A stretch of 64,000 nt of DNA, taken from Thermoanaerobaculia bacterium. GTDB taxonomy: Bacteria; Acidobacteriota; Thermoanaerobaculia; Multivoradales; UBA5704. The stretch spans positions 8,260 through 72,259 of the forward strand of contig JBBSBW010000031.1 in assembly GCA_038250865.1 (NCBI GenBank), read 5' to 3'. A program made the position numbers and the translations under genes. How positions within the stretch are numbered: position 1 is the stretch's first letter; the number at the start of each line of letters is the position of its first letter. The notes below the pieces were generated by a model. It was not told the origin of the DNA. It made no database searches and saw only the letters and a program-made list of their open reading frames with translations. Below, piece by piece: positions 34,352 through 58,861 of the stretch.

Positions 34352-34408
34352 GGGTGCAGAAGATTGTAGCGCCCGATCCCTTCCGGCGCCTCTGATACCA
34401 TTCCGCCC

Positions 34409-35578
34409 GTGAAACTCGCATCAAGGATGTCTCGCGTCGGCGAATCCGCCACGCTCAAGGTGGCTCGTCGCGCTCTCGCGCTCAAAAGCCAGGGGGTCGA
34501 TCTGGTCGACCTCGGCGCCGGGGAGCCCGATTTCCCCACTCCCAACATCGCCGTCGAAGCCGCCTGCGCCGCCCTCCGCGACGGTTTTACCAAATACACC
34601 GCCGGCAGCGGCACTCCCGAGCTGCGCGGCGCCGTGGCGGAACACTACCGCGCCCGTTTCGGCTCCCACTGGGCGGCGGCCCAGACGGTGATCTCGGTCG
34701 GCGGCAAGGCCGGACTGTTCGAGATCGCCATGTCGATCGCCGAACCAGGGGTGGAGATCGTCCTCCCTTCGCCCTGCTGGGTGAGCCTGCCGGCGCAGAT
34801 CGAGCTGGCGGGCGGCACGCCGGTGATGGTTCCGAGCTGTCCCGACGACGGCTTCGCGCTCCACGCCGAGGCGCTGCTCGCCGCGGTGACCGAACGGACC
34901 CGGGCGATCCTGATCAACTCGCCGTCGAATCCGACCGGCGGACTGATCTCGCCTTCCGAGCTGCGCGCCCTGGTCGAAGGCGCCGCCGCCCGGGAGATTC
35001 TGGTGATCGCCGACGAGACCTACGCCCGGCTGGTGTACGACGGCGCGCCGATCGCGACCGTCGCCTCGCTCGCCGCCGAGTTTCCCAACACCGTGGTGCT
35101 CGCCGGCTCGTTTTCGAAGACCTACGCGATGACCGGATGGCGGGTGGGCTACGTGCTCGGTCCGCCGGAGCTGATCGCTGCGGTGGAAGGGGTGCAGAGC
35201 CACGTCACCTCGAACCCGACCTCGTTCGCCATGGTCGGCGCGCTCGCGGCGCTTCAAAACGCCGAGCCGGAGGTCGAGCGGATGATCGCGATCTACCAGG
35301 AGCGGCGCGATTTCCTGATCCCCCGGCTGAACGCGATCCCCGGCCTCACCTGCGCCCCTCCGGGCGGCGCGTTCTATGCTTTCCCCCGGGCGACCGACGT
35401 GTTTGCGCCCGGCCGGTCGAATTCGGTCGAACTCGCCGAGTTTCTACTCGAAGAGGCGCGCGTCGCCGTCGTGCCCGGCTCGGCGTTCGGCGCCGACGAC
35501 CACATCCGGCTGTCGTTTGCGACCTCGCTCGAAGAGCTGGGCCGCGGCGTCGAGCGGATCGCGGCGGCGCTCTCCTGA
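34409..35578 (+). CDS. Aspartate aminotransferase-like, class I/II
   Basis: GEPDF, NSPSNPTG, DETY, SFSKTYAMTGWRVGY and IRLSFA. Confidence 0.95.
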   Translation: MKLASRMSRVGESATLKVARRALALKSQGVDLVDLGAGEPDFPTPNIAVEAACAALRDGFTKYTAGSGTPELRGAVAEHYRARFGSHWAAAQTVISVGGKAGLFEIAMSIAEPGVEIVLPSPCWVSLPAQIELAGGTPVMVPSCPDDGFALHAEALLAAVTERTRAILINSPSNPTGGLISPSELRALVEGAAAREILVIADETYARLVYDGAPIATVASLAAEFPNTVVLAGSFSKTYAMTGWRVGYVLGPPELIAAVEGVQSHVTSNPTSFAMVGALAALQNAEPEVERMIAIYQERRDFLIPRLNAIPGLTCAPPGGAFYAFPRATDVFAPGRSNSVELAEFLLEEARVAVVPGSAFGADDHIRLSFATSLEELGRGVERIAAALS

Positions 35579-35637
35579 TCTCCAAGGCCGCCCTGCGGCC
35601 GGCTCCGCTCTTAACGTTCCCGTTTTGGAGGACACCG

Positions 35638-37485
35638 ATGACCTTGCGATTCAAATTCAACTCCCGGGTGCTCGCGCTCAGCCTCGGCACCGGCCTCCTG
35701 GCGTTCGCGCCCGTTGCGGCCCGCGCGGCCAACCCGGCCAGCCAGGCCGACACCCCGGCGCCCACCGTGGAAGAGGCGACGCAGTTCGTCGCCGAAGCCG
35801 AACAGCGCCTGACCGACCTCGGCCTCGAAGCCCAGCGCACCGACTGGGTGAAGCAGAACTTCATCACCTCGGACACCGAAGTGCTCTCGGCCAAGGCCGG
35901 CGAGCGGGCGGTGACCGCGGCGGTCGAATACGCCAAGAAGGCGCCGCGCTACGACGGCCTCGCGGTCCCGGCCGACGTGCGGCGGAAGCTCGAATTCTTG
36001 AAGCTGTCGCTGGTGGTACCCGCTCCGAGCGATCCGAAGAAGACCACAGAGCTGTCGCAGATCACCGCCTCGCTCGATGCCGACTACGGCCGCGGCAAGT
36101 ACTGCCCGCCGGGCAAAGAGTGCATGGACATCGAAAAGCTCTCCGACATCATGGACGCGAGCCAGAACCCCGCGGAGCTGCTCGAAGCCTGGAAGGGGTG
36201 GCACGCGATCGCCCCGCCGATGAAGGAGCGTTTCGAGCGCTACGTCGAGCTGGGCAACGAAGGGGCGCGCGAGCTGGGCTATAAGGACATGGGAGCGCTC
36301 TGGCGCTCGAAGTACGACATGCCGGCGGACGACTTCGCCAAAGAGGTCGACCGGCTGTGGAATCAGGTCAAGCCGCTTTACGACCAGCTCCATTGCTACG
36401 TGCGGGCCAAGCTGACGGCCAAATACGGCGCCGACGTGGTGAAGCCGGGCGAGCCGATCCCCGCGCACCTGCTGGGCAATATGTGGGCGCAGGACTGGAG
36501 CAACGTCTACCCGCTGGTCGCCCCCCCGACCGCCGATCCCGGCTACGTCCTCACCGACCGGCTCAAAGCGAAAGGGACCACCGAAATCGGCATGGTCAAG
36601 TACGGCGAGGCGTTCTTCACCTCGCTCGGCTTTGCCCCTCTGCCGGCGACGTTTTGGGAGCGTTCGCTGATCGTCCAGCCGAAGGACCGCGAGGTGGTCT
36701 GCCACGCGAGCGCCTGGGACATCGACAACGAGGAAGACCTGCGGATCAAGATGTGCACCCAGGTCAACTCCGAAGACTTCCAAACCATCCACCACGAGCT
36801 GGGTCACAACTTTTACCAGCGCGCCTACAACAAGCAGCCGAACTTCTTCCGCGACAGCGCGAACGACGGTTTCCACGAGGCGGTGGGCGACACGATCGCT
36901 CTCTCGATCACGCCGGAGTATCTGAAGAAGATCGGCCTGATCGACACCGTCCCCGATCCGTCCAAAGACATCGGCCTGCTGCTCGACCGCGCGCTCGACA
37001 AGATCGCCTTCCTGCCGTTCGGCCTGATGGTCGACCAATGGCGCTGGAAGGTCTTCTCGGGCGAGATCACGCCGGACCACTACAACGAGAGCTGGTGGCA
37101 GCTGCGCAAGAAGTACCAGGGCGTTCAGCCGCCGGTGCCGCGCACCGAGGCCGACTTCGACGCAGCGGCGAAGTACCACGTGGCGGCGAGCGTTCCCTAC
37201 ACCCGTTATTTCCTCGCCGCGATCCTCCAGTTCCAATTCCACCGCGCGCTCTGCCAGGCCGCGGGGGTGGAAGGCCCGCTGAACCGCTGCTCGATCTACG
37301 GCAACAAGGTGGCGGGCGCCAAGCTCGAAAAGATGCTCGCGATGGGCGCGAGCCGCCCCTGGCCCGATGCTCTAGAAGCGCTCACCGGCAGCCGGCAGAT
37401 GGACGCCACGGCGATCGTCGATTATTTCCAGCCGCTTCTGGTCTGGTTGAAGGACCAGAACAAGGGCCAGAAGTGCGGCTGGTGA
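35638..37485 (+). CDS. M2-family metallopeptidase (peptidyl-dipeptidase A, ACE-like)
   Basis: Signal peptide, HLLGNMWAQDW, HHELGH (HExxH), GFHEAVGD and KYHV...PYTRYF. Confidence 0.95.
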   Translation: MTLRFKFNSRVLALSLGTGLLAFAPVAARAANPASQADTPAPTVEEATQFVAEAEQRLTDLGLEAQRTDWVKQNFITSDTEVLSAKAGERAVTAAVEYAKKAPRYDGLAVPADVRRKLEFLKLSLVVPAPSDPKKTTELSQITASLDADYGRGKYCPPGKECMDIEKLSDIMDASQNPAELLEAWKGWHAIAPPMKERFERYVELGNEGARELGYKDMGALWRSKYDMPADDFAKEVDRLWNQVKPLYDQLHCYVRAKLTAKYGADVVKPGEPIPAHLLGNMWAQDWSNVYPLVAPPTADPGYVLTDRLKAKGTTEIGMVKYGEAFFTSLGFAPLPATFWERSLIVQPKDREVVCHASAWDIDNEEDLRIKMCTQVNSEDFQTIHHELGHNFYQRAYNKQPNFFRDSANDGFHEAVGDTIALSITPEYLKKIGLIDTVPDPSKDIGLLLDRALDKIAFLPFGLMVDQWRWKVFSGEITPDHYNESWWQLRKKYQGVQPPVPRTEADFDAAAKYHVAASVPYTRYFLAAILQFQFHRALCQAAGVEGPLNRCSIYGNKVAGAKLEKMLAMGASRPWPDALEALTGSRQMDATAIVDYFQPLLVWLKDQNKGQKCGW

Positions 37486-50146: not shown

Positions 50147-51064
50147 ATGTCTTTTGACACTGATGAATATGAGAGGGGTCAACGAGATGGGGCTAACTCG
50201 TCAACGCTTGGCGAATTGGGAATAGCACTAAACATAACTTCATCCAAGCATTACGTTTTGGGATTTCAGAACGGAGCTGCAAACAAAAGACGCAATTCCT
50301 GGACTTCATCCCCTGAAAGTGCAACAAGCCATGACTTCGGCGACGGAGCTGCCTCTACAATATTACTATTTTGTTTATTTATATGTGCTGCATTCGTCAC
50401 TGTTATCCAATGGATTATCCTAATAGCACTTTGGATTTTTAGCAGCCCACGGCGAGTAGCTGTCGGCCTGCTACTCGCCGTAGTGATCGTAGTCTTAAAC
50501 AGCCTGCCATACAAACTTCCACCCTACCTGGACCTAAGCGTTGCACCGGTAGCATTACCGACTCTACTTGCACCCGTCGAGGTTCCGCGCCCGCTGGCAG
50601 CATCAGAGTCCCAGCCAATTGCAGAGACTTCGGCACTATCAAATCCAACATTCGTTCCTCTTGGGCACTTTTCTGATGGCACGTATGAAATAGAGCTTTA
50701 CCGGGATGACGAAGCAAGCAGTCAGGTTATTGGACTGATCATATCTTTTTCTCCAGATTCCACCAAAATAACCGTGGGAGAGATTTTGGATGTCGTTGGA
50801 ACTGGTAGCGACGGACCACTTAGTTTCAGGACAACGTGGGCAGACTATATGCCTTATTTCAGAGGCAGCCTCAAAGGGGACGAAATCGAAGGCGACTACG
50901 AAACGTCCTTCGAGCGAGAACCGCGGCATATAATCTTTCAACGAGTAGAAAATCCAACCACTACCGGTGTGTATGCCAATCGAGAGGAGTGGTCTAAACA
51001 TCTCGCCGAACTACTCGCGTGTTGTGGGCAAGATGCGAGGCCTGACGAACCCACTGATCAGTAG
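50147..51064 (+). CDS. AT-richer orphan membrane protein (2 TM)
   Basis: AAGG RBS-like sequence, 305 codons, two hydrophobic helices, Pro-rich linker; visibly lower GC than the flanks. Confidence 0.7.
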   Translation: MSFDTDEYERGQRDGANSSTLGELGIALNITSSKHYVLGFQNGAANKRRNSWTSSPESATSHDFGDGAASTILLFCLFICAAFVTVIQWIILIALWIFSSPRRVAVGLLLAVVIVVLNSLPYKLPPYLDLSVAPVALPTLLAPVEVPRPLAASESQPIAETSALSNPTFVPLGHFSDGTYEIELYRDDEASSQVIGLIISFSPDSTKITVGEILDVVGTGSDGPLSFRTTWADYMPYFRGSLKGDEIEGDYETSFEREPRHIIFQRVENPTTTGVYANREEWSKHLAELLACCGQDARPDEPTDQ

Positions 51065-51388: not shown

Positions 51389-54300
51389 TTATTCAGACAC
51401 CTTTGGGTGCGCAGAGTTCCCACTCAGCGCCCGCCCCAAATCGATCGCCCGCACAAACCCCTCATCGCCGTCGACGCAAACCATCCCGTCCTCCCCCACC
51501 CTTGCACCCTCCGTCAGATAGTCCCCAGGTCGGCACGTAAACACCAGAATCTGGAAAATACGGGCCTTTTCCGCCAGCAGCCCCCGGAACCATTCCATCC
51601 GGACGTCATCGCTCTGGACGAGCTGGTCGTCGAGGACCACGGTCGTCTGGAGATACTCCCCGAGGCACAGGCGGTAGAGCGTTGAGAGCTGTTCGCGTGT
51701 TCCGACGGACATGCGATCGGGAGATCGAACCTCTCCTGCTACGAACACCCCTTCGGTACTCAGATCGGCGGAGAGGTGGACGTTTTGATAGCGCTGGCGG
51801 GTCAAGGCCTCGAACCGTCCGGCGATAGCCGGCGCGAGGGCTTGGCCGAGGTTGCTTGCCTGATCGGCGTCCGCTTCCTTCATCTGTTCCAGCAGCAGCT
51901 TCCAGGCCTCGTAGTCCGTCTCGATCTCGTAGTCTTGTTGCTCGGCCAGTTCGAACGCCTCGACCGCTTGGCGCAAGCGATCTTTCGCGATGGCGCCGCC
52001 GACCTGCTGGAGCCTGCCTTGCGTAGTCAGAATCTCCTCGGTGAGGCTTGCGAGGGCCTGCCGCGCCTTCGCCGAGACTTCCGTCGCGAGGGTGACCTCT
52101 TCGGCGCTGATCATCCGCTCCGGCACGGGAAGGGCGTCGTGCCGATCCGTGGTTTCGCGAAGCGCGCACTCGGCGGTCGGGAGATCCTCGGCTGCGCGCT
52201 GTCGGCGGCGCTCGACCAGCCTCCCCTCTTCGTTTGAATGATCCGCGATGGCCTTTGAGAGAGACTCCTGTGCGGTTTCGACGCCGCGCTGGGCCTCATC
52301 CACCGCATCCCGAACCTGTGCCAGAACGGAATCGATCTCGCTTTTCCTGGCAGCCATCCGGGATTGCAGGGAGCGCAGCTCCGTTGCCACTCGCTCTCGA
52401 TCCTCCTCGGCAGCTCGGAGACTCGCCTCGGCAGCCGCGATCTCAGAAGCCAATCCGCAGGGAAAGGCCAGGAGCGCGGCATCCCGATCCGCCCTCGCCG
52501 CTTCCAAGGTTGACCGCAGAGCCCGAGTGCGCTCCTCCGCCAAAGCCTGGGCGGTGGCCGACTCCTGAACCGCTGCTCTTGCCGCCTCTGCATCGCGCGT
52601 GGCCTGCTGCCGGCGGGCGCGGAGAGACGCGCTCGGATCGGGACCCAGCAGATCGAGATCGGAGGCGAGCGTTTCCACCGTCTCGTCTTCAAGCGCGAGA
52701 CGGCAGGCCGCCGAGCGTTCGGAGGCCTCGCGGAGTGTCTCGGCGGCGCCGGAAAAGCCGGCGAGCTGGCGCCCCAGGGATTCCAGCTCGACATCGATCG
52801 ACTGGAGTCGGGAATCCAACTCCTTCGCTTCGGTCATTTTCTCTTCGAGCCCTTCCAAATCTTCCACCCCGGCCGCCACCAAATGCGGGAGAACCTCGGC
52901 GGCCCGGCGGCTCTCCAGGGCGCGAGCCCGATCCTGCGCTTCGCGGCGGCCACCCCGCACCCGAACAGTCGCCAAATCGGCGATATCCACTTCCGCCTCG
53001 GCATCCGCTTCGATGACCAAAGGCCGGGCGATCGTTGTGGGGACTACGGCCACACCGTCCTTCCGAACCTGTAGGGCAACGAGCGAAGTGGGGATCACCG
53101 TCATCACAAACCCCACCTCCAAGGCACCTCGCGCGGTGGCAAGCTCCGTTTCGAGCTTCCGCAGGGCTGGAAGGATCGCCGCGCCTGGCACCACCAGGGC
53201 CGTTCTCCGCTCGGCAAGATCGGCCCTCTCTGCCGCAATGCGCTTGGAGTCTGCGTGAAGAGCCGACTCCCGCTCGACTTCGGCGCGGGCGCTCGCGACT
53301 GTGCGCTCTGCGATCCGCGCTTCTGCGCCGCGTTCGAGCACCTCGCAGCGCCTTAACGCATCGTTCGCCGACGTCTCGGCCTGCGTGGCTTCGGCCCGCC
53401 GTTCGCGCGCGCTTGCGGCTTCGGCCTCTTTCTGGCGGTGCTCTTCTTCGACTCGGTCGGCGGCTTGCACCTTCTCCTGCACCCGGATCGCGGCTTCGAC
53501 CCGTCGGCGAGCCGCTTCCACCGCCTGCTCCGCGGAGAGCTTCTGCAATTCAAGACCTTGGCGGGCGACCGTTTCGGCCATGTCGGAGCCCGTTGCGCTC
53601 GCCTGTTCCTCGGCGGAAACCAGGGCATCGCCGGCCGAGGCTGCCGCCGCTTTCCCAGCCTTCAAGTTTTGCTCCGCCTGTTCCTTGGCCGCCGCGAGAT
53701 CCCGGACTCGCTGTTCCGCTTCGGCCACGGCCTGATCGATCCCCTGGATACGCGCAACCTCCGCGCGCGCGGATTCGACCGCTTCCCCAGCCACCTCACG
53801 CGCGATGACCTGACCTGCCAGGAGCTGAACGGCCACCAAGCGTTCCTCCGCGGCGGCAAGCTCCCCTTCGGCGTGGGTCCGCTTCTGATAGAGATCCTTA
53901 AGGTGCGCCTCCACCTCATCCGACTCCTCGACGATTTTTTCGAGGCGCTCCTTTTCTTCTCGGGCTTCCTTCACCCGATCCGCGGCAATCTTGAAGACGC
54001 TCCCCCGAGCCGTCTTCTTGGCACCCTTGTCCGTGAACGCCTCGTCTCGTCGGGCTTGGGCCTGACGGAGCAGAGCCAGGAAAAGGGAGTCCTGTGCCAC
54101 GGCTTCTAACGCGGCCGCAATTTGGCTCTTCCCGCTCAGAGTGCCGTCGTCCCGCAGGCTGCGGTTCAAAACATCGGTCACGTTGGCCTGCGTCGAAAGC
54201 AACGCGGTGGCCAAGAAACTCGTCGGAAGCCCCTTGCCCGCCCCCGATCCGCCCGGCTCGGGAATGCCCCATCGAAGGATGTCCCGAAGTTTCGCATCGA

Positions 54301-54640
54301 CCTTGCGCGCGCGTTCGACGTCTTCGAAGTCCACTCCGTTCCTCGACACTTGGAGCAGCGACGAACCGCGCTTGCCGAACTGTTTCCGGACGCGCCAGAT
54401 CCTCTGCGGCTCCGTCTCGAACGTCAGCTCGACCAACGGATCTTCGCCCCCAGACCAGGGGATGTAGGGTTCGCAGGCGGTCGAGGTGTGGGGAAGCAAC
54501 AGCGCCAGGCGGATCGCATCCGCAAGCGTTGATTTGCCGATGTCGTTGGGGCCATAAAGAACGTTGAGCCCTGGACCGAACGCAAGGTCCACGTCCGGAA
54601 TCGCGGCAAAATGCCGAACGAGCAGCCGGTGGAGCCTCAC
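51389..54640 (-). CDS. Rad50/SbcC/YhaN-like ABC ATPase with long coiled coil
   Basis: GTG start. Walker A GPNDIGKST, long Ala/Glu/Arg coiled coil, signature MSVGTREQ, Walker B/D-loop VLDDQLVQSD, FTC. Confidence 0.9.
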   Translation of the reverse strand: MRLHRLLVRHFAAIPDVDLAFGPGLNVLYGPNDIGKSTLADAIRLALLLPHTSTACEPYIPWSGGEDPLVELTFETEPQRIWRVRKQFGKRGSSLLQVSRNGVDFEDVERARKVDAKLRDILRWGIPEPGGSGAGKGLPTSFLATALLSTQANVTDVLNRSLRDDGTLSGKSQIAAALEAVAQDSLFLALLRQAQARRDEAFTDKGAKKTARGSVFKIAADRVKEAREEKERLEKIVEESDEVEAHLKDLYQKRTHAEGELAAAEERLVAVQLLAGQVIAREVAGEAVESARAEVARIQGIDQAVAEAEQRVRDLAAAKEQAEQNLKAGKAAAASAGDALVSAEEQASATGSDMAETVARQGLELQKLSAEQAVEAARRRVEAAIRVQEKVQAADRVEEEHRQKEAEAASARERRAEATQAETSANDALRRCEVLERGAEARIAERTVASARAEVERESALHADSKRIAAERADLAERRTALVVPGAAILPALRKLETELATARGALEVGFVMTVIPTSLVALQVRKDGVAVVPTTIARPLVIEADAEAEVDIADLATVRVRGGRREAQDRARALESRRAAEVLPHLVAAGVEDLEGLEEKMTEAKELDSRLQSIDVELESLGRQLAGFSGAAETLREASERSAACRLALEDETVETLASDLDLLGPDPSASLRARRQQATRDAEAARAAVQESATAQALAEERTRALRSTLEAARADRDAALLAFPCGLASEIAAAEASLRAAEEDRERVATELRSLQSRMAARKSEIDSVLAQVRDAVDEAQRGVETAQESLSKAIADHSNEEGRLVERRRQRAAEDLPTAECALRETTDRHDALPVPERMISAEEVTLATEVSAKARQALASLTEEILTTQGRLQQVGGAIAKDRLRQAVEAFELAEQQDYEIETDYEAWKLLLEQMKEADADQASNLGQALAPAIAGRFEALTRQRYQNVHLSADLSTEGVFVAGEVRSPDRMSVGTREQLSTLYRLCLGEYLQTTVVLDDQLVQSDDVRMEWFRGLLAEKARIFQILVFTCRPGDYLTEGARVGEDGMVCVDGDEGFVRAIDLGRALSGNSAHPKVSE

Positions 54641-55800
54641 CGCACCCCTCCGGGCAGATCGTCTTGCTGTTGCAGAAGCTTGTAAAGGTGGGTCAACGCA
54701 CGGGTGGCCCTCTCCTTTTCGGCCTCGACCATCGAGCCTTCGACGATCCGGTTGAGACGGGCGACCGTATCCTCAAGCACCGGCGGCAGGTCGGCGGGGA
54801 AGGCGTCGGCGGAGCCGGTTTGCACCCGCAGTTTCGTCCGGTCCACGACCAGGATGCCGGCGCGGCCGTGGGTTGCATCGGTTCCTTCCAAATCCCGGAC
54901 GATTCGAGTCAGCTCGCTCTCTTCCGCCAGCGTGACCGTCATGTCCAGATGAAGCCGGACCACGTGGCGTTCGAGATCCTGCCGAGTCAGCAAAGACCGA
55001 AGCTCGTTCATGTCGCGGCACCGCACGTCGATCCAAGTCCAAGAGGCCACCGACGCCGCTTCGACGCGGGGGCGGCGTGAACCCTGTCGGAACAACGCGA
55101 CGACCGCCACTTTGCCGCTGCCCGGTTCGTCGAAATTCGTCGGCTCTGGAGTTCCCGGATAGACGGTCGGCACCGATAGATTCGGCGTAACGTCACGAAA
55201 CGAGTGGGCATCGCCGATGGCAAGATAGTCGAGACCGCGCAGGACTCCCGCCTCTCGACGGATGGGGAAGTCGGTCTCGTAGCCGGGCATATCGAACGTG
55301 CTGCCATGAACACAGCCGATGCGGAGCCGAGAATCACCCGCCTCCCGCTCAGGCAGGGCCATGGCCGGATCATCCTGTCCGGCCGTCGATCGGCACGGTT
55401 GGGCGTACAAGACCGCCTCCGGTGTGATCTCGTAAGAGAAATCGTCCCGATCCACAACATGAACCCCTGCAGGTAGAGACGCGCGAAACGGATGCTTGGC
55501 GGACCACACCGATCCCTCTTTGAGCGGATCGTGATTGCCTGGCACGAGGAACACCGGCGCCTCGATCGGGTGATCGTGGAAGATCTTGGCGAGCCCCGCC
55601 CAGAAGTCCGGAGCCGGCGCCTGGTCATCGAACAGATCTCCTGCGCAGAGGACGGCATGGACCCCGTGGCGCCGCGCCAATTCGAGAATCCTGACAACGA
55701 CGTCCATCCGTGCCCGCGAGAGTTTCTTCTGCGCCTCTTCCGGAAAGGTCGGGAAACGCCGGCCCAGGTGCCAGTCCGCCGTGTGCAGGAGCTTCAACAT
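54637..55800 (-). CDS. Mre11/SbcD-like metallophosphoesterase nuclease
   Basis: Start MLKLL; HTADWHLG, AGDLFD, PGNHD, VHG, GDAHS and YPGTPE; GTGA overlap with the ATPase gene. Confidence 0.92.
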   Translation of the reverse strand: MLKLLHTADWHLGRRFPTFPEEAQKKLSRARMDVVVRILELARRHGVHAVLCAGDLFDDQAPAPDFWAGLAKIFHDHPIEAPVFLVPGNHDPLKEGSVWSAKHPFRASLPAGVHVVDRDDFSYEITPEAVLYAQPCRSTAGQDDPAMALPEREAGDSRLRIGCVHGSTFDMPGYETDFPIRREAGVLRGLDYLAIGDAHSFRDVTPNLSVPTVYPGTPEPTNFDEPGSGKVAVVALFRQGSRRPRVEAASVASWTWIDVRCRDMNELRSLLTRQDLERHVVRLHLDMTVTLAEESELTRIVRDLEGTDATHGRAGILVVDRTKLRVQTGSADAFPADLPPVLEDTVARLNRIVEGSMVEAEKERATRALTHLYKLLQQQDDLPGGVR

Positions 55801-58769
55801 GACGTCGTCGGCTCCGGGGGATCGATCCGGAACACCGCCCGAAACAGACGGGTCACCTTCGATGATTGGTACCGGCGCTCGTGGTAGTCGTCTCGCCATT
55901 TGCGGTAGACCTCGTCTTCTCTGGAATCCAAGGCGTTCATTCGACTTTCCAGGCTTTCCTGCCGAGACGCGAGATTTTCGATCTCCGCTTCGACCCGCTG
56001 GCGGTCGGTCGCGCCGACCACCTGGTCGCGCCGGGATCGGGCGGCCCGCAGCTTCTCGGTCATGCTTTTCAGCTCTCGGCGGCAGAGGAGAATCTTGTCC
56101 TCGACATACCGCTCGAGCTGCCCCAGGGCCTGTTCGAAATGCTTCTGCTCGCTCCGCTCGATCTCCTGCTGATCGACGAACACTGCCTCGTCCACCGCGT
56201 CGTCGAGACATGCCGGGGCCACGGCAATCTCCAACGCAGGGCAGTCGGCAGCAGGAAGGCGAGCGATCCGGGCGGCCAGTTCGGGATCGATCGGGGCTCC
56301 GTCGATCACGGCCGCCGCGACCAGCTGCTCTACGGGCTCGAAGCCGCCGTAGTCCACGAGCACCACGTCGAGGATTCCGGTCTTGCCCACCAGGCGGGCG
56401 AGATCGGGCGAAGCGTCCGGCATCAACCGCAGGGCGACCGATCCGCCCGGCCACCGGCGAGCGTCCGCGATCGACGCCTGCACCAGTGGATGAGTCAGAT
56501 TCAGAGCTTCGGCGTCGCTCAATTCGCGCGCATCACCGACCGCAAACTTCCGCCCCTCCCCAAACTCGCCAGGCAGCCCCTGTTCAGACAAGACCTCGAA
56601 GACGGCTCGATTTCCCTCGCCGGATCGGCGGTACTCGATCCCGGACGCGGCCAGGTAGCCGTCCACCAGATCGGCGAGATCTCGATCGAGTTGGGCGAGG
56701 GCGGCGGGCAGTTCCTGGCGCAAATGCCGGAACGCCTTCCGTACCTCTTCGTCGAAGCGGGATTCGATGATCTGGGAGGTACGTCTGTACTCTCTCTCGT
56801 AGGCCTCCCGGCGGCCCTCGATCTTGTCGCGCAACGCCGAGATCTCGCGCGTGATCTCTTCGATCGTACGAGAGCGGCTGTAGATGTTCTGGAGGTCGCT
56901 TTGCAGCTCGACGGCCAGGGCCGAGACCGCGATCTCGGGTGCCTCGGTACGCGGCTCGTGCAGAACGGTATCGGACGCATCCAGGACCTTGCCGAAAAGG
57001 TCGAGCTTCCGGCTCAGGATCTCGAACGTCAGTTGCTGCCCCTCGTTGTCCCGGTTGATGAAATTGACCACCGTGACGTCCCGCTTCTGGCTGTATCGAT
57101 GGCAGCGGCCGATGCGCTGCTCGATGCGTTGGGGGTTCCAGGGCAGGTCGTAGTTGATCACCGTCTCGCAGAACTGGAGGTTTAGACCTTTGGCCCCGGC
57201 CTCGGTCGATAGAAAGACTTTGGACCTCGTGCGGAACTCGTGAACCAGGGCCAGCCGCACGGCGACCTCGCGGCTCGGGGGGGTCTGGGGCAAGAGGCGG
57301 GCACCTTCTTCCGCATGCCAACGGGCAAGGGCCTGGCCGGCGCGCTCGTAGTCGTTGACCCCACGAAACAGAGTGATCTCCTCGTCCTCGAGTCCGGCTT
57401 CGAGGAGCAGCTTCCGCAGGTACTCCTGGGTCGTGATCGACTCGGTGAACACGACGGCCTTGCCGCTGCCCCGGCCGTCCCGGCCACGAGCGAGGACAAG
57501 CCGGATCGCCTCCAAGAACGAGCGGGCCTTGGCATCGCTCGGAAGCGAGCGCGCGCGAGCGAGGAGTTCCTCGACGCGGGCGAGTTCCGCCAAGACCGCG
57601 TTGCGATCCAGGGGAGGGGCTGGGTCGTCCAAGAGTGGCTCCGCTCTCTCCTCTTCGTCCTCCAGGTCGCGAAGCATCGCGGCCATCGTTTCGGCACTAC
57701 CCTGGCCCTCTGCCAGACGGCGGAGCCGGGCGGCTACGTTGTCCAGGCTCGCGGCCAAGGCGGGGATCGAGGAAGCCATGCGGCGGTGGAAACCGATGAG
57801 CAGGAGGCGGCGCTGTCGCCCGGCGAAGGCGAACAGCGAAGGCTCGAGAAGATATTCGGTCACATCGTCATAGAGAGCGCGCTCGTCGGTGCTCATCGCG
57901 TACTCGTAGAGACGGCACCGCCTCTGCGTGAACGGGCGGTCGAGAAACTCTTGGGCTTGCCGGCGCAGGGTGCGCTGGAGGACCACAGAGAGGCGCCGCT
58001 GAAGCTCGTGCTCCTGTCCCGGCACGAGGGTCCGGTCGTCCTCGTCGCAGAACACCTTGCGGAACGTCGAGAGGTCTCCCAGCAGCGTGCCGGTCGGTTC
58101 GACATACTGCACCAGGCCCCACAGCTCGGCCAAGGAGTTTTGAATGGGCGTGGCGGTCAGCAGGAGAACCGGTGCCGATCTCAAGAAACCTCGGACGCGG
58201 TGGGCCATCATCGCCTCATCCGAGGCTTCGTCGTAGATGCCGTCGCGGCCGTATCGCTTGTGGAGCCCGGCAAAGATCTCGTGGGCTTCGTCGATCACCA
58301 CCAGGTCGAAGGGGGGTGCGGCCGAAAGAAGCGCCGCGCCGCGCTCGCTTCCCGCAAATTCACGTCCGACCAGGTAGACCCCGGGGTCGAGGAAGCTCGC
58401 CGGGTCCTCACGCGTCTGGATGCCGAAGAGCTGGAGCAGCTCGGCCTGCCACTGGCCGAGGATCGACTTCGGCACGATGAGCAGAATGCGCAGGGCGCCT
58501 TCCGCCCGGCGCTGAGCGATGACGAGGCCAGCCTCGATCGTCTTGCCGAGACCTACCTCGTCCGCGAGAATGCAGCCACCTTCCTGCAAACGCCGGAGCG
58601 CGAAGATCACCGCGTCGATCTGGTGCGGATTGGGATCGATCCGTGCCTGGCGTTGCGCCGCCGCATAACGTTCCCGATCGTCCGGCCGGCGGACGCGGAT
58701 GAGATCCTCGGCGAGGATGCGCCGGTTGAAGGCATGAGTTGATCGCCCGGCGAGTGGCTTGTCTATCAT
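55794..58769 (-). CDS. SNF2-family helicase/translocase with C-terminal coiled coil
   Basis: PHQ, LADEVGLGKT, DEAH, TATP, STEAGAKGLNLQ, YDLPWNP..IEQRIGRCHR; 7-nt overlap with the Mre11-like start. Confidence 0.93.
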   Translation of the reverse strand: MIDKPLAGRSTHAFNRRILAEDLIRVRRPDDRERYAAAQRQARIDPNPHQIDAVIFALRRLQEGGCILADEVGLGKTIEAGLVIAQRRAEGALRILLIVPKSILGQWQAELLQLFGIQTREDPASFLDPGVYLVGREFAGSERGAALLSAAPPFDLVVIDEAHEIFAGLHKRYGRDGIYDEASDEAMMAHRVRGFLRSAPVLLLTATPIQNSLAELWGLVQYVEPTGTLLGDLSTFRKVFCDEDDRTLVPGQEHELQRRLSVVLQRTLRRQAQEFLDRPFTQRRCRLYEYAMSTDERALYDDVTEYLLEPSLFAFAGRQRRLLLIGFHRRMASSIPALAASLDNVAARLRRLAEGQGSAETMAAMLRDLEDEEERAEPLLDDPAPPLDRNAVLAELARVEELLARARSLPSDAKARSFLEAIRLVLARGRDGRGSGKAVVFTESITTQEYLRKLLLEAGLEDEEITLFRGVNDYERAGQALARWHAEEGARLLPQTPPSREVAVRLALVHEFRTRSKVFLSTEAGAKGLNLQFCETVINYDLPWNPQRIEQRIGRCHRYSQKRDVTVVNFINRDNEGQQLTFEILSRKLDLFGKVLDASDTVLHEPRTEAPEIAVSALAVELQSDLQNIYSRSRTIEEITREISALRDKIEGRREAYEREYRRTSQIIESRFDEEVRKAFRHLRQELPAALAQLDRDLADLVDGYLAASGIEYRRSGEGNRAVFEVLSEQGLPGEFGEGRKFAVGDARELSDAEALNLTHPLVQASIADARRWPGGSVALRLMPDASPDLARLVGKTGILDVVLVDYGGFEPVEQLVAAAVIDGAPIDPELAARIARLPAADCPALEIAVAPACLDDAVDEAVFVDQQEIERSEQKHFEQALGQLERYVEDKILLCRRELKSMTEKLRAARSRRDQVVGATDRQRVEAEIENLASRQESLESRMNALDSREDEVYRKWRDDYHERRYQSSKVTRLFRAVFRIDPPEPTTSC

Positions 58770-58861
58770 GAACTTCTCAACGTTACGCTACTCAACGTAA
58801 GGGAGGCAATGACGGTGGAACCTCCACTCGTGACAGCAACGCAATCTCAAAGCGGTCCGCG

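Follow-up and report, generated by a model that had tools for sequence, protein, structure and literature searches.

A candidate mobile defence cassette combining a SNF2 motor, an Mre11-type nuclease and a hook-less Rad50-like ATPase

Three overlapping genes conserved as a unit

We analysed a 64,000-nucleotide stretch of the Thermoanaerobaculia bacterium assembly GCA_038250865.1 (contig JBBSBW010000031.1, positions 8,260 to 72,259 of the forward strand; “the window” below). The subject of this work is a triad of adjacent genes in that window, encoding a SNF2-family ATPase, an SbcD/Mre11-type metallophosphoesterase nuclease and a Rad50/SbcC-like ABC ATPase (Table 1). An earlier note, made by reading the sequence, had described three joined genes in a defence island and proposed that they form a new defence system.

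The open reading frames (ORFs), their translations and a direct reading of the junctions all agree with the description of the genes as joined. The SNF2 and nuclease genes share seven nucleotides (nt), ATGTTGA, which hold the SNF2 stop codon TGA (55796-55794) and the nuclease ATG (55800-55798), with GGAG 11 nt upstream. The nuclease and ATPase genes share the four nucleotides GTGA (54640-54637). The ATPase start codon is the GTG within this overlap, and it is preceded by GGAGGGG. The three genes are a translationally coupled operon.

Table 1. Features of the three-gene locus, in window coordinates (aa, amino acids)
Feature	Position	Strand	Length	Basis
SNF2-family ATPase gene	55794..58769	(-)	991 aa	
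SbcD/Mre11-type metallophosphoesterase nuclease gene	54637..55800	(-)	387 aa	
Rad50/SbcC-like ABC ATPase gene	51389..54640	(-)	1083 aa	
SNF2 C-terminal region (sub-feature)	55797..56972	(-)	392 aa	AlphaFold2 and Foldseek
ATPase tip (apex) domain (sub-feature)	52841..53191	(-)	aa ~484-600	conservation and AlphaFold2
HEC-01B/SNF2 spacer	58770..58861	(-)	92 nt	sequence read directly

To find relatives of the triad, one genome per species was scanned with the nuclease, which gave 39 loci (clade 1), and a profile-based scan added 13 more (clade 2, L049-L061). In total there are about 52 loci in many phyla. The order SNF2, nuclease, ATPase was the same in all 39 clade-1 loci wherever the contig reached, and clade 2 keeps this order with a nuclease that is only ~50% identical and ATPase ends that are 35-50% identical. 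The 7-nt overlap of the SNF2 and nuclease genes recurs in 15 of the 17 fully scored loci, and the 4-nt overlap of the nuclease and ATPase genes is kept in 17 of 17. Against five relatives, the ratio of nonsynonymous to synonymous substitution rates (dN/dS) was 0.19-0.25 for the ATPase gene and lower, at 0.10-0.17, for the other two genes. When 320 flank ORFs were clustered all against all, no fourth conserved gene emerged, and even the commonest flank cluster reached just 6 of the 39 loci.

Because the same three-gene order stands in 39 + 13 loci of other genomes, the arrangement is not due to chance. The conserved order and overlaps, the low dN/dS and the lack of a fourth gene therefore establish the triad as a real, self-contained, selected unit that has been inherited together over deep divergence.

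The sequence upstream of the operon is less uniform. A sigma-70-like element, TTGAC(C/G)-17 nt-TAT(C/T)GT, is conserved about 40-70 nt upstream of the SNF2 start in five relatives (L001, L002, L004, L005 and L029) and is absent upstream of the window SNF2 gene. A promoter and terminator scan gave no sigma-70 consensus match in the window spacer. In the window, a direct repeat, ACGTTGAG, occurs twice just upstream of the SNF2 ATG, at about 58775-58805.

Four of the 39 copies (L022, L024, L033 and L034) carry deletions, as expected of dispensable accessory genes. In these copies the SNF2 gene has an internal deletion or is absent altogether, and most of the ATPase gene is intact; the nuclease gene of L033 is truncated at its 5' end.

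The nuclease family as a whole is large: in metagenomes it forms >1,800 clusters at 90% identity, and at 50% identity it has about 150 representatives (E ≤ 1e-30). One representative, P0134 (1338 aa), aligns at its N-terminus with nuclease residues 2-273 and extends ~1000 residues beyond that match; it is a fusion of nuclease and ATPase or else an artefact of a frameshift. At three loci, genes for related proteins of 384-518 aa lie directly downstream of the ATPase gene (L011:14436-15587(-), L017:16481-18019(-) and L033:13518-15071(+)), followed in L033 by a DprA/SLOG-like gene. This protein may be an accessory gene product of a sub-clade. It has no Pfam domain, and its identification as a non-homologous end joining (NHEJ) ligase was rejected.

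A RapA/DrmD-type motor, a nuclease with intact motifs and an atypical ATPase

The SNF2 protein matched the Pfam models SNF2-rel_dom (3e-24) and Helicase_C (2e-15), and its motifs I (GLGKT), II (DEAH), III (TATP) and VI (QRIGRxHR) were invariant in 22 homologues. A helicase core (aa ~40-690) is joined to a RapA-like C-terminal alpha+beta/coiled-coil region (aa 600-991), and there is no N-terminal Tudor domain. In PADLOC, the best match was DrmD (3e-124); BrxHI matched at 5e-54, and the helicase cores of DpdE and ZorD also matched. The DrmD models NF038318 (DrmD_b; 416.5 versus 950 bits) and NF038317 (191.9 versus 610 bits) both fell short of their cutoffs, and the second aligned over aa 151-969. 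By sequence, the best solved relative was RapA (9e-28). An AlphaFold2 model of the C-terminal 392 aa (mean predicted local distance difference test score, pLDDT, 82.4) comprised a three-helix stalk, an alpha/beta domain, an antiparallel coiled coil of ~115 residues and a terminal beta hairpin, and its sole significant Foldseek match in the PDB was to the C-terminal part of RapA (chain 8t0l_F, E 2e-5). BrxHII likewise has a RapA-like C-terminal part (PMC12839542). On the strength of the DrmD alignment, the RapA sequence match and the RapA-like C-terminal model, the protein is a full-length Snf2 ATPase and dsDNA translocase of the RapA/DrmD/BrxHII type, without the N-terminal Tudor domains.

This assignment bears on the earlier suggestion that the SNF2 subfamily usually sits beside Type III restriction-modification genes. 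The protein is closest to DISARM DrmD, BREX BrxHII and RapA and not to a Type III restriction-modification subunit. Related families of ResIII and N6_N4_Mtase genes occur close to the triad in only four of 38 loci (L009, L015, L018 and L025); one member of each, the ResIII protein of L018 and the N6_N4 methylase of L009, was verified with Pfam. The window cassette and the majority of loci lack both Mod and Res.

The nuclease, a calcineurin-like phosphoesterase, contains a Metallophos domain (Pfam, 1.3e-11) with all of the SbcD metallophosphoesterase motifs I-VI. The residues D9/H11 (DxH), D55 (GD), N89/H90 (GNHD), H165 and D197/H199 (GDxH) were invariant in 22 sequences. The last motif is GDxH, not GHxH, and GDTHS aligns to the GHIH of E. 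coli SbcD. In a profile search of the PDB, the protein matched SbcD and Mre11 (4lty, 6s6v and 3qg5) at 1e-13; it scored below the curated cutoffs of TIGR00619 sbcd (58.4 versus 77.65) and PRK10966 (48.6 versus 450), and its C-terminal half is family-specific. PADLOC gave zero matches at E ≤ 0.01. It is an SbcD/Mre11-type Mn-nuclease with intact active-site motifs.

The third protein is an AAA_23/SMC_N-type ABC ATPase with a split head, two coiled-coil arms of ~270-300 aa and a globular tip domain. It matched AAA_23 in Pfam at 7.7e-10, and AAA_27, the YhaN N-terminal domain, at 19.6 bits, below the cutoff of 22. The best curated matches were Rad50 models, with a score of 27.3 for PRK03918 against a cutoff of 700. 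The PDB profile search returned the Rad50 head at 1.4e-11 and aligned SVGTREQ to the Rad50 signature LSGGER. In PADLOC there were only weak matches, mostly to the P-loop, with LmuB models the best at 2e-9.

Across the family, the ATPase motifs GPNDxGKST, SVGTREQLS, VLDDQLVQSD and FTCRP were invariant or nearly so. Clade 2 ATPases retain LDDxL..SD and TC[RH]P, with His in some clade-2 members only. The Walker B motif of Rad50, SbcC and SMC proteins normally carries a catalytic Glu. In the hhLDDxL..SD motif of the present ATPase, Asp takes its place, and in clade 1 the H-loop has Arg (TCRP). Because the catalytic Glu and the H-loop His are both replaced, the protein probably works as a slow ATPase or a switch rather than as a canonical Rad50. 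The earlier statement that all catalytic motifs are intact thus applies to the SNF2 protein and the nuclease, with invariant motifs in 22 homologues each, but not to the ATPase, whose Walker B (VLDDQ) and H-loop (TCRP) are non-canonical.

The same note had described the ATPase as lacking a CxxC zinc hook. No CxxC was found in any of 29 ATPases (21 from clade 1 and 8 from clade 2), whereas two control SbcC genes encode CPIC and CPVC at residues 519 and 512, that is at mid-length, together with LSGGE, IDEGFG and ISH. The absence of the zinc hook is therefore confirmed. However, the tip of the coiled coil is not bare, as “hook-less” might imply. It holds a conserved block at mid-length (aa ~484-600) in which V484, P485, R494, G510, D528, G529, G563, G564 and P585 are invariant, and AlphaFold2 (pLDDT 86) models this block as a small six-stranded beta-sandwich of ~60 residues between the arm helices, with strands at model residues 57-108, at the site of the CxxC hook in Rad50 and SbcC. 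Foldseek found no match in the PDB at E ≤ 0.001; the best, at 0.024, was to pilus-usher plug domains. With nothing significant in Foldseek, the modelled domain is neither a zinc hook nor an SMC hinge, and its assignment to a hinge or to any known fold was rejected.

Hosts, neighbouring genes and plasmid-borne cousins

Proteins that share 65-80% identity are spread over Acidobacteriota, Rokubacteria, Binatia, Verrucomicrobia, Armatimonadota, Alphaproteobacteria and “delta proteobacteria”. The hosts include Holophagales, Thermoanaerobaculia, Bryobacterales, Vicinamibacteria, Terriglobales and Blastocatellia, as well as Rokubacteria, Binataceae, Verrucomicrobiae, Fimbriimonadales, Roseiarcus and “delta proteobacteria”, and clade 2 adds Myxococcales and Gammaproteobacteria. 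Such identity across this many host groups indicates that the cassette moves horizontally among unrelated soil bacteria.

In the window, the triad lies within an island of ~22 kb (38578-60887), bounded by housekeeping-type genes, for an M2 peptidase and an NHL-repeat protein, on one side and by yebC on the other. The G+C content of the island is 0.54-0.67, below that of most of the remaining window. The window contains no integrase, and no tRNA, looked for as an integration site. The island carries a type IIG-like methyltransferase gene, PDC-S02 (PADLOC, 5e-139), the Shango genes SngABC (8e-93, 9e-178 and 8e-274), a 305-aa ORF, the triad and the HEC-01 pair (A and B, 8e-145 and 2e-71). Known defence systems thus flank the triad on both sides, and Shango, PDC-S02, HEC-01 and the type IIG-like methyltransferase bear out the defence-island setting described in the earlier note.

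Several neighbours in the window have features of their own. The type IIG-like methyltransferase gene is accompanied by a 250-aa ORF with no Pfam match, and the PDC-S02 nuclease (DUF1016, 512 aa) has an N-terminal extension of ~140 aa. The 305-aa ORF (50147-51064 (+)) separates Shango from the 3' end of the triad and falls in the patch of lowest G+C in the window (0.54). It had no Pfam or PADLOC match and no homologue in the 39 related loci, and it could be an orphan gene with a defence or accessory function. At 34396-37485 (+), a 1029-aa protein matched Peptidase_M2, the angiotensin-converting-enzyme family, at E 7e-230, with an N-terminal region of ~450 aa that matched nothing.

At the 38 other loci, gene families were counted over the 124 nearest neighbours, among the 25 commonest families listed. 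The matches listed there included GajA (3), GajB (3), ZorD-like proteins (3), BrxL (2), GmrSD (2) and N6_N4 methylases (3), as well as OLD-TOPRIM, TIR and ZorA, and integrases in 4 flanks. Gene pairs of the GajA+GajB (Gabija) type were directly confirmed in L003, and Shango recurs in L001 and L005. On the metagenome contig L045, the neighbours are a YprA-type helicase with RNase_H_2, Dam, an OLD nuclease and HicA.

No phage-borne copies were found, with 3 weak matches only, and tblastn found no plasmid-borne copies at 60% identity or above. It did find more distant cousins, namely nucleases of ~30% identity on 92 plasmid records, mostly from Rhizobium and Sphingomonadaceae. We examined the gene neighbourhoods of three of these records, two of which are conjugative. 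The conjugative plasmid p1 of Sphingobium sp. CAP-1 (L127, NZ_CP046254.1 47851-55978) has the gene order WYL regulator, 1099-aa RNase_H_2 + SF1 helicase (MkoA-like), nuclease, 876-aa ATPase and methyltransferase. In the conjugative Bradyrhizobium plasmid p1S06B, a UvrD-PD-(D/E)XK helicase with an M78-peptidase domain is encoded upstream of the nuclease and an 891-aa ATPase. In the Tsukamurella record, a DUF3670-type SNF2 gene and a PIN gene lie upstream of the genes for the nuclease and an ATPase of 877 aa. The signature LSxGTxEQ...LDDxLVxSDD...TCR is common to the window ATPase and those of Sphingobium and Bradyrhizobium, and the ATPases of Sphingobium and Tsukamurella exceed the Pfam AAA_27 cutoff of 22 bits (23.5 and 35.3 bits). 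The differing motor partners look like the module shuffling that is typical of defence systems.

The Sphingobium CAP-1 cousin is a related candidate system from a cultured strain, and it may suit experiments better. A HEPN + DUF3883 pair lies just upstream of it, and tblastn matches of near-identical score and extent occur on several other Sphingomonadaceae plasmids.

A probable defence cassette built from repair-like parts

No single PADLOC v2.0.0 system was matched by all three proteins; the SNF2 protein gave only sub-threshold DrmD/BrxH matches, and NCBIfam and Pfam gave no system-level match. In the full-text literature we found no named defence system that combines SNF2 with an SbcCD-like pair, and nothing relevant in work on BREX, domain-centric discovery, YprA/ARMADA, modularity networks, Millman 2022 or the Dnd reappraisal. 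The expectation that PADLOC would return no full system, and the claim that the triad matches no named one, are both supported by these searches.

One close resemblance is to SbcCD/Mre11-Rad50, in which a metallophosphoesterase nuclease and a split-head ABC ATPase with long antiparallel coiled coils are likewise encoded by adjacent, overlapping genes, and which gave the best PDB sequence matches (E. coli 6s6v and 7yzo, T. maritima 3qg5 and P. furiosus Rad50 3qkt). Unlike SbcCD, the cassette has a beta-sandwich tip instead of CxxC, SVGTREQ instead of LSGGE, LDD instead of DE and an Arg in the H-loop. It also has an obligate SNF2 gene in the operon, it is mobile, patchy and found in defence islands, and it falls below all curated SbcC, SbcD and Rad50 cutoffs.

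Lamassu and Wadjet are thought to sense DNA ends, structure or topology. They resemble the cassette in pairing a long coiled-coil ABC ATPase (LmuB in Lamassu; Wadjet is JetABCD) with a nuclease and in being independent of methylation. In contrast to them, the cassette lacks LmuA, LmuC, kleisin, KITE and Toprim components, its matches to LmuB are weak, its effector is an Mre11-type nuclease and its SNF2 motor is separate. The SNF2 protein itself resembles DISARM DrmD, its best match, and BREX BrxHII, ARMADA ArmA and E. coli RapA, the last in its C-terminal 390 aa; unlike DISARM and BREX, however, the cassette has no conserved DrmA/B/C, PglZ/PglX or methyltransferase, and its SNF2 protein is below the DrmD cutoffs. 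There is a precedent for joining such a helicase to a small defence module: in ietHAS, a DrmD-like SNF2 helicase is added to the IetAS pair and is essential for protection (PMC13069673). The IetAS partners, a protease and an ATPase, are unrelated to those described here, and the helicase that is an add-on there is present in every intact copy of this cassette.

The B. subtilis proteins SbcE and SbcF provide another comparison and, in the papers examined, represent the characterised class that comes nearest. SbcE (YhaN) lacks CxxC and has arms of ~300 aa with a unique conserved central domain that contains a conserved proline; the adjacent SbcF (YhaO) is SbcD-like, the two have a role in double-strand break repair and competence, and yhaO-yhaN adjoin yhaM and not a SNF2 gene (PMC2811018). 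In architecture only, the window pair is alike, with a hook-less ATPase, arms of ~300 aa, a family-specific central domain with a conserved proline and an adjacent SbcD-like nuclease. It differs in that the window ATPase is below the AAA_27 cutoff and the Bacillus pair is chromosomal with no SNF2 partner. Given the published architecture of SbcE/YhaN (PMC2811018), the hook-less SbcC-like ATPase is a class already described. What is new here is the obligate operon with a DrmD-type Snf2 motor, the ATPase's own tip domain and the mobile, defence-island lifestyle.

From this context, we consider it fairly probable that the triad is a single mobile cassette for DNA-targeting defence, independent of methylation and directed against phage and/or plasmid DNA. 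The conserved unit, its mobility, the defence neighbours, the SNF2 subfamily, the modular cousins and the decayed copies all argue for this explanation. Some observations weigh against it. The cassette contains no evident sensor of “non-self”, and its nearest relatives among characterised enzymes, SbcCD and SbcEF, act in repair. Repair genes also occur among the 124 neighbours (an NHEJ-type ligase in 3 and a ligase-associated DEXH helicase in 2), and on the metagenome contig L044, which carries a PIN/RHH pair, the surrounding genes are metabolic. Moreover, it is motifs and a structural model that suggest the roles given to the Asp-Asp Walker B, to the Arg H-loop and to the tip domain.

These same repair connections are the substance of the strongest competing explanation, that the triad is a mobile SbcEF-like (YhaO/YhaN) module for double-strand break repair or recombination, serving the host or a mobile element, in which the SNF2 motor clears proteins from the break. 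Eukaryotic remodellers give such assistance to MRN-dependent resection. Among solved structures and curated families, the best matches are Rad50/SbcC and SbcD/Mre11, the plasmid cousins exceed the AAA_27 (YhaN) cutoff, the ligase and DEXH-helicase genes would fit, and some flanks are purely metabolic; the architecture, too, fits the description of SbcE and SbcF (PMC2811018). Nevertheless, we regard this explanation as unlikely, though far from negligible. A core repair module would follow phylogeny, whereas the triad has a rare, patchy distribution in which identity across phyla is 65-80%; its flanks are variable, with known defence systems on both sides in the window and at many other loci; and its SNF2 subfamily is that of DISARM and BREX. 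The window ATPase is also below the AAA_27 cutoff, and the Bacillus pair sits beside yhaM (PMC2811018). A plainer version, in which the nuclease and ATPase are the sole housekeeping SbcCD and the helicase gene is adjacent by chance, is very improbable. It agrees with the source annotation, “DNA repair exonuclease SbcCD nuclease subunit”, but the scores are under every curated cutoff, as with PRK10966 and Rad50 (27 versus 700) above. In addition, the ATPase has none of the CxxC, LSGGE, DE Walker B and H-loop His of real SbcC genes, linkage to SNF2 is strict over two clades, and the genes lie in a lower-G+C island between defence systems.

A different kind of alternative concerns the upstream HEC-01 pair, an AAA_21 ATPase and a DUF4276 protein, of which the triad could be the tail in a five-gene operon that works only with HEC-01. 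The orientation is the same and only the 92-nt spacer separates HEC-01B from the SNF2 start, and because the promoter-like element is missing in the window, read-through transcription is possible. However, neither HEC-01A nor HEC-01B was detected by tblastn at any of the 39 related loci, and the five-gene operon was therefore rejected as a general feature (0 of 39). No flank gene is common to more than 6 loci, HEC-01 is a stand-alone two-gene system in PADLOC, and co-transcription would not imply functional dependence. Even for the window, we give this dependence hardly any credence.

If the triad is indeed a defence cassette, its nuclease and ATPase would come together as Mre11-Rad50/SbcCD do, forming an M2R2-type clamp, which would recognise and cut free, hairpin-capped or protein-blocked ends of invader DNA, or replication intermediates. 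The slow-hydrolysing ATPase would then act mainly as an ATP-gated DNA sensor and clamp. The SNF2 motor would do the mechanical work, by tracking along the duplex, by stripping end-protecting or nucleoid proteins or by feeding DNA to the nuclease. The beta-sandwich tip, in place of the zinc hook, may mediate dimerisation between arms or serve as a docking point, possibly for the C-terminal coiled coil of the SNF2 protein. As there is no methyltransferase in the cassette, self-discrimination would depend on DNA ends or structure and not on modification.

The cassette may also belong to a wider, so far unrecognised class of immune modules, as one of its branches, in which a YhaO/YhaN-like core is combined with interchangeable DNA motors and invader DNA ends or structures are sensed without a methylation mark; this generalisation is tentative, and on balance we lean slightly against it. 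The core would be a Rad50-like clamp that lacks the hook, hydrolyses ATP slowly and has a tip domain of its own, together with an Mre11-type nuclease, and the motors would be RapA/DrmD-type SNF2 proteins, MkoA-like SF1 helicase-nucleases, UvrD-PD-(D/E)XK helicases and DUF3670 SNF2 proteins. Such a class, if it exists, would be a bacterial counterpart of MRN and the Snf2 remodellers, turned to defence.

Should the cassette prove protective, it would be a widespread immune system of soil bacteria made from DNA-repair parts, for which methylation is not needed. It would offer a tractable case for studying how a Rad50-type clamp is re-aimed at foreign DNA, how a zinc hook is replaced and what a separate Snf2 motor contributes, the last question having its parallel in the help that remodellers give to MRN-dependent resection in eukaryotes. 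If the triad is instead a mobile repair module, it would still add a new kind of operon to the SbcEF class, which is poorly understood. Protection would further mean that defence catalogues, drawn largely from cultured genomes, miss systems that are common in Acidobacteriota and other uncultured soil phyla.

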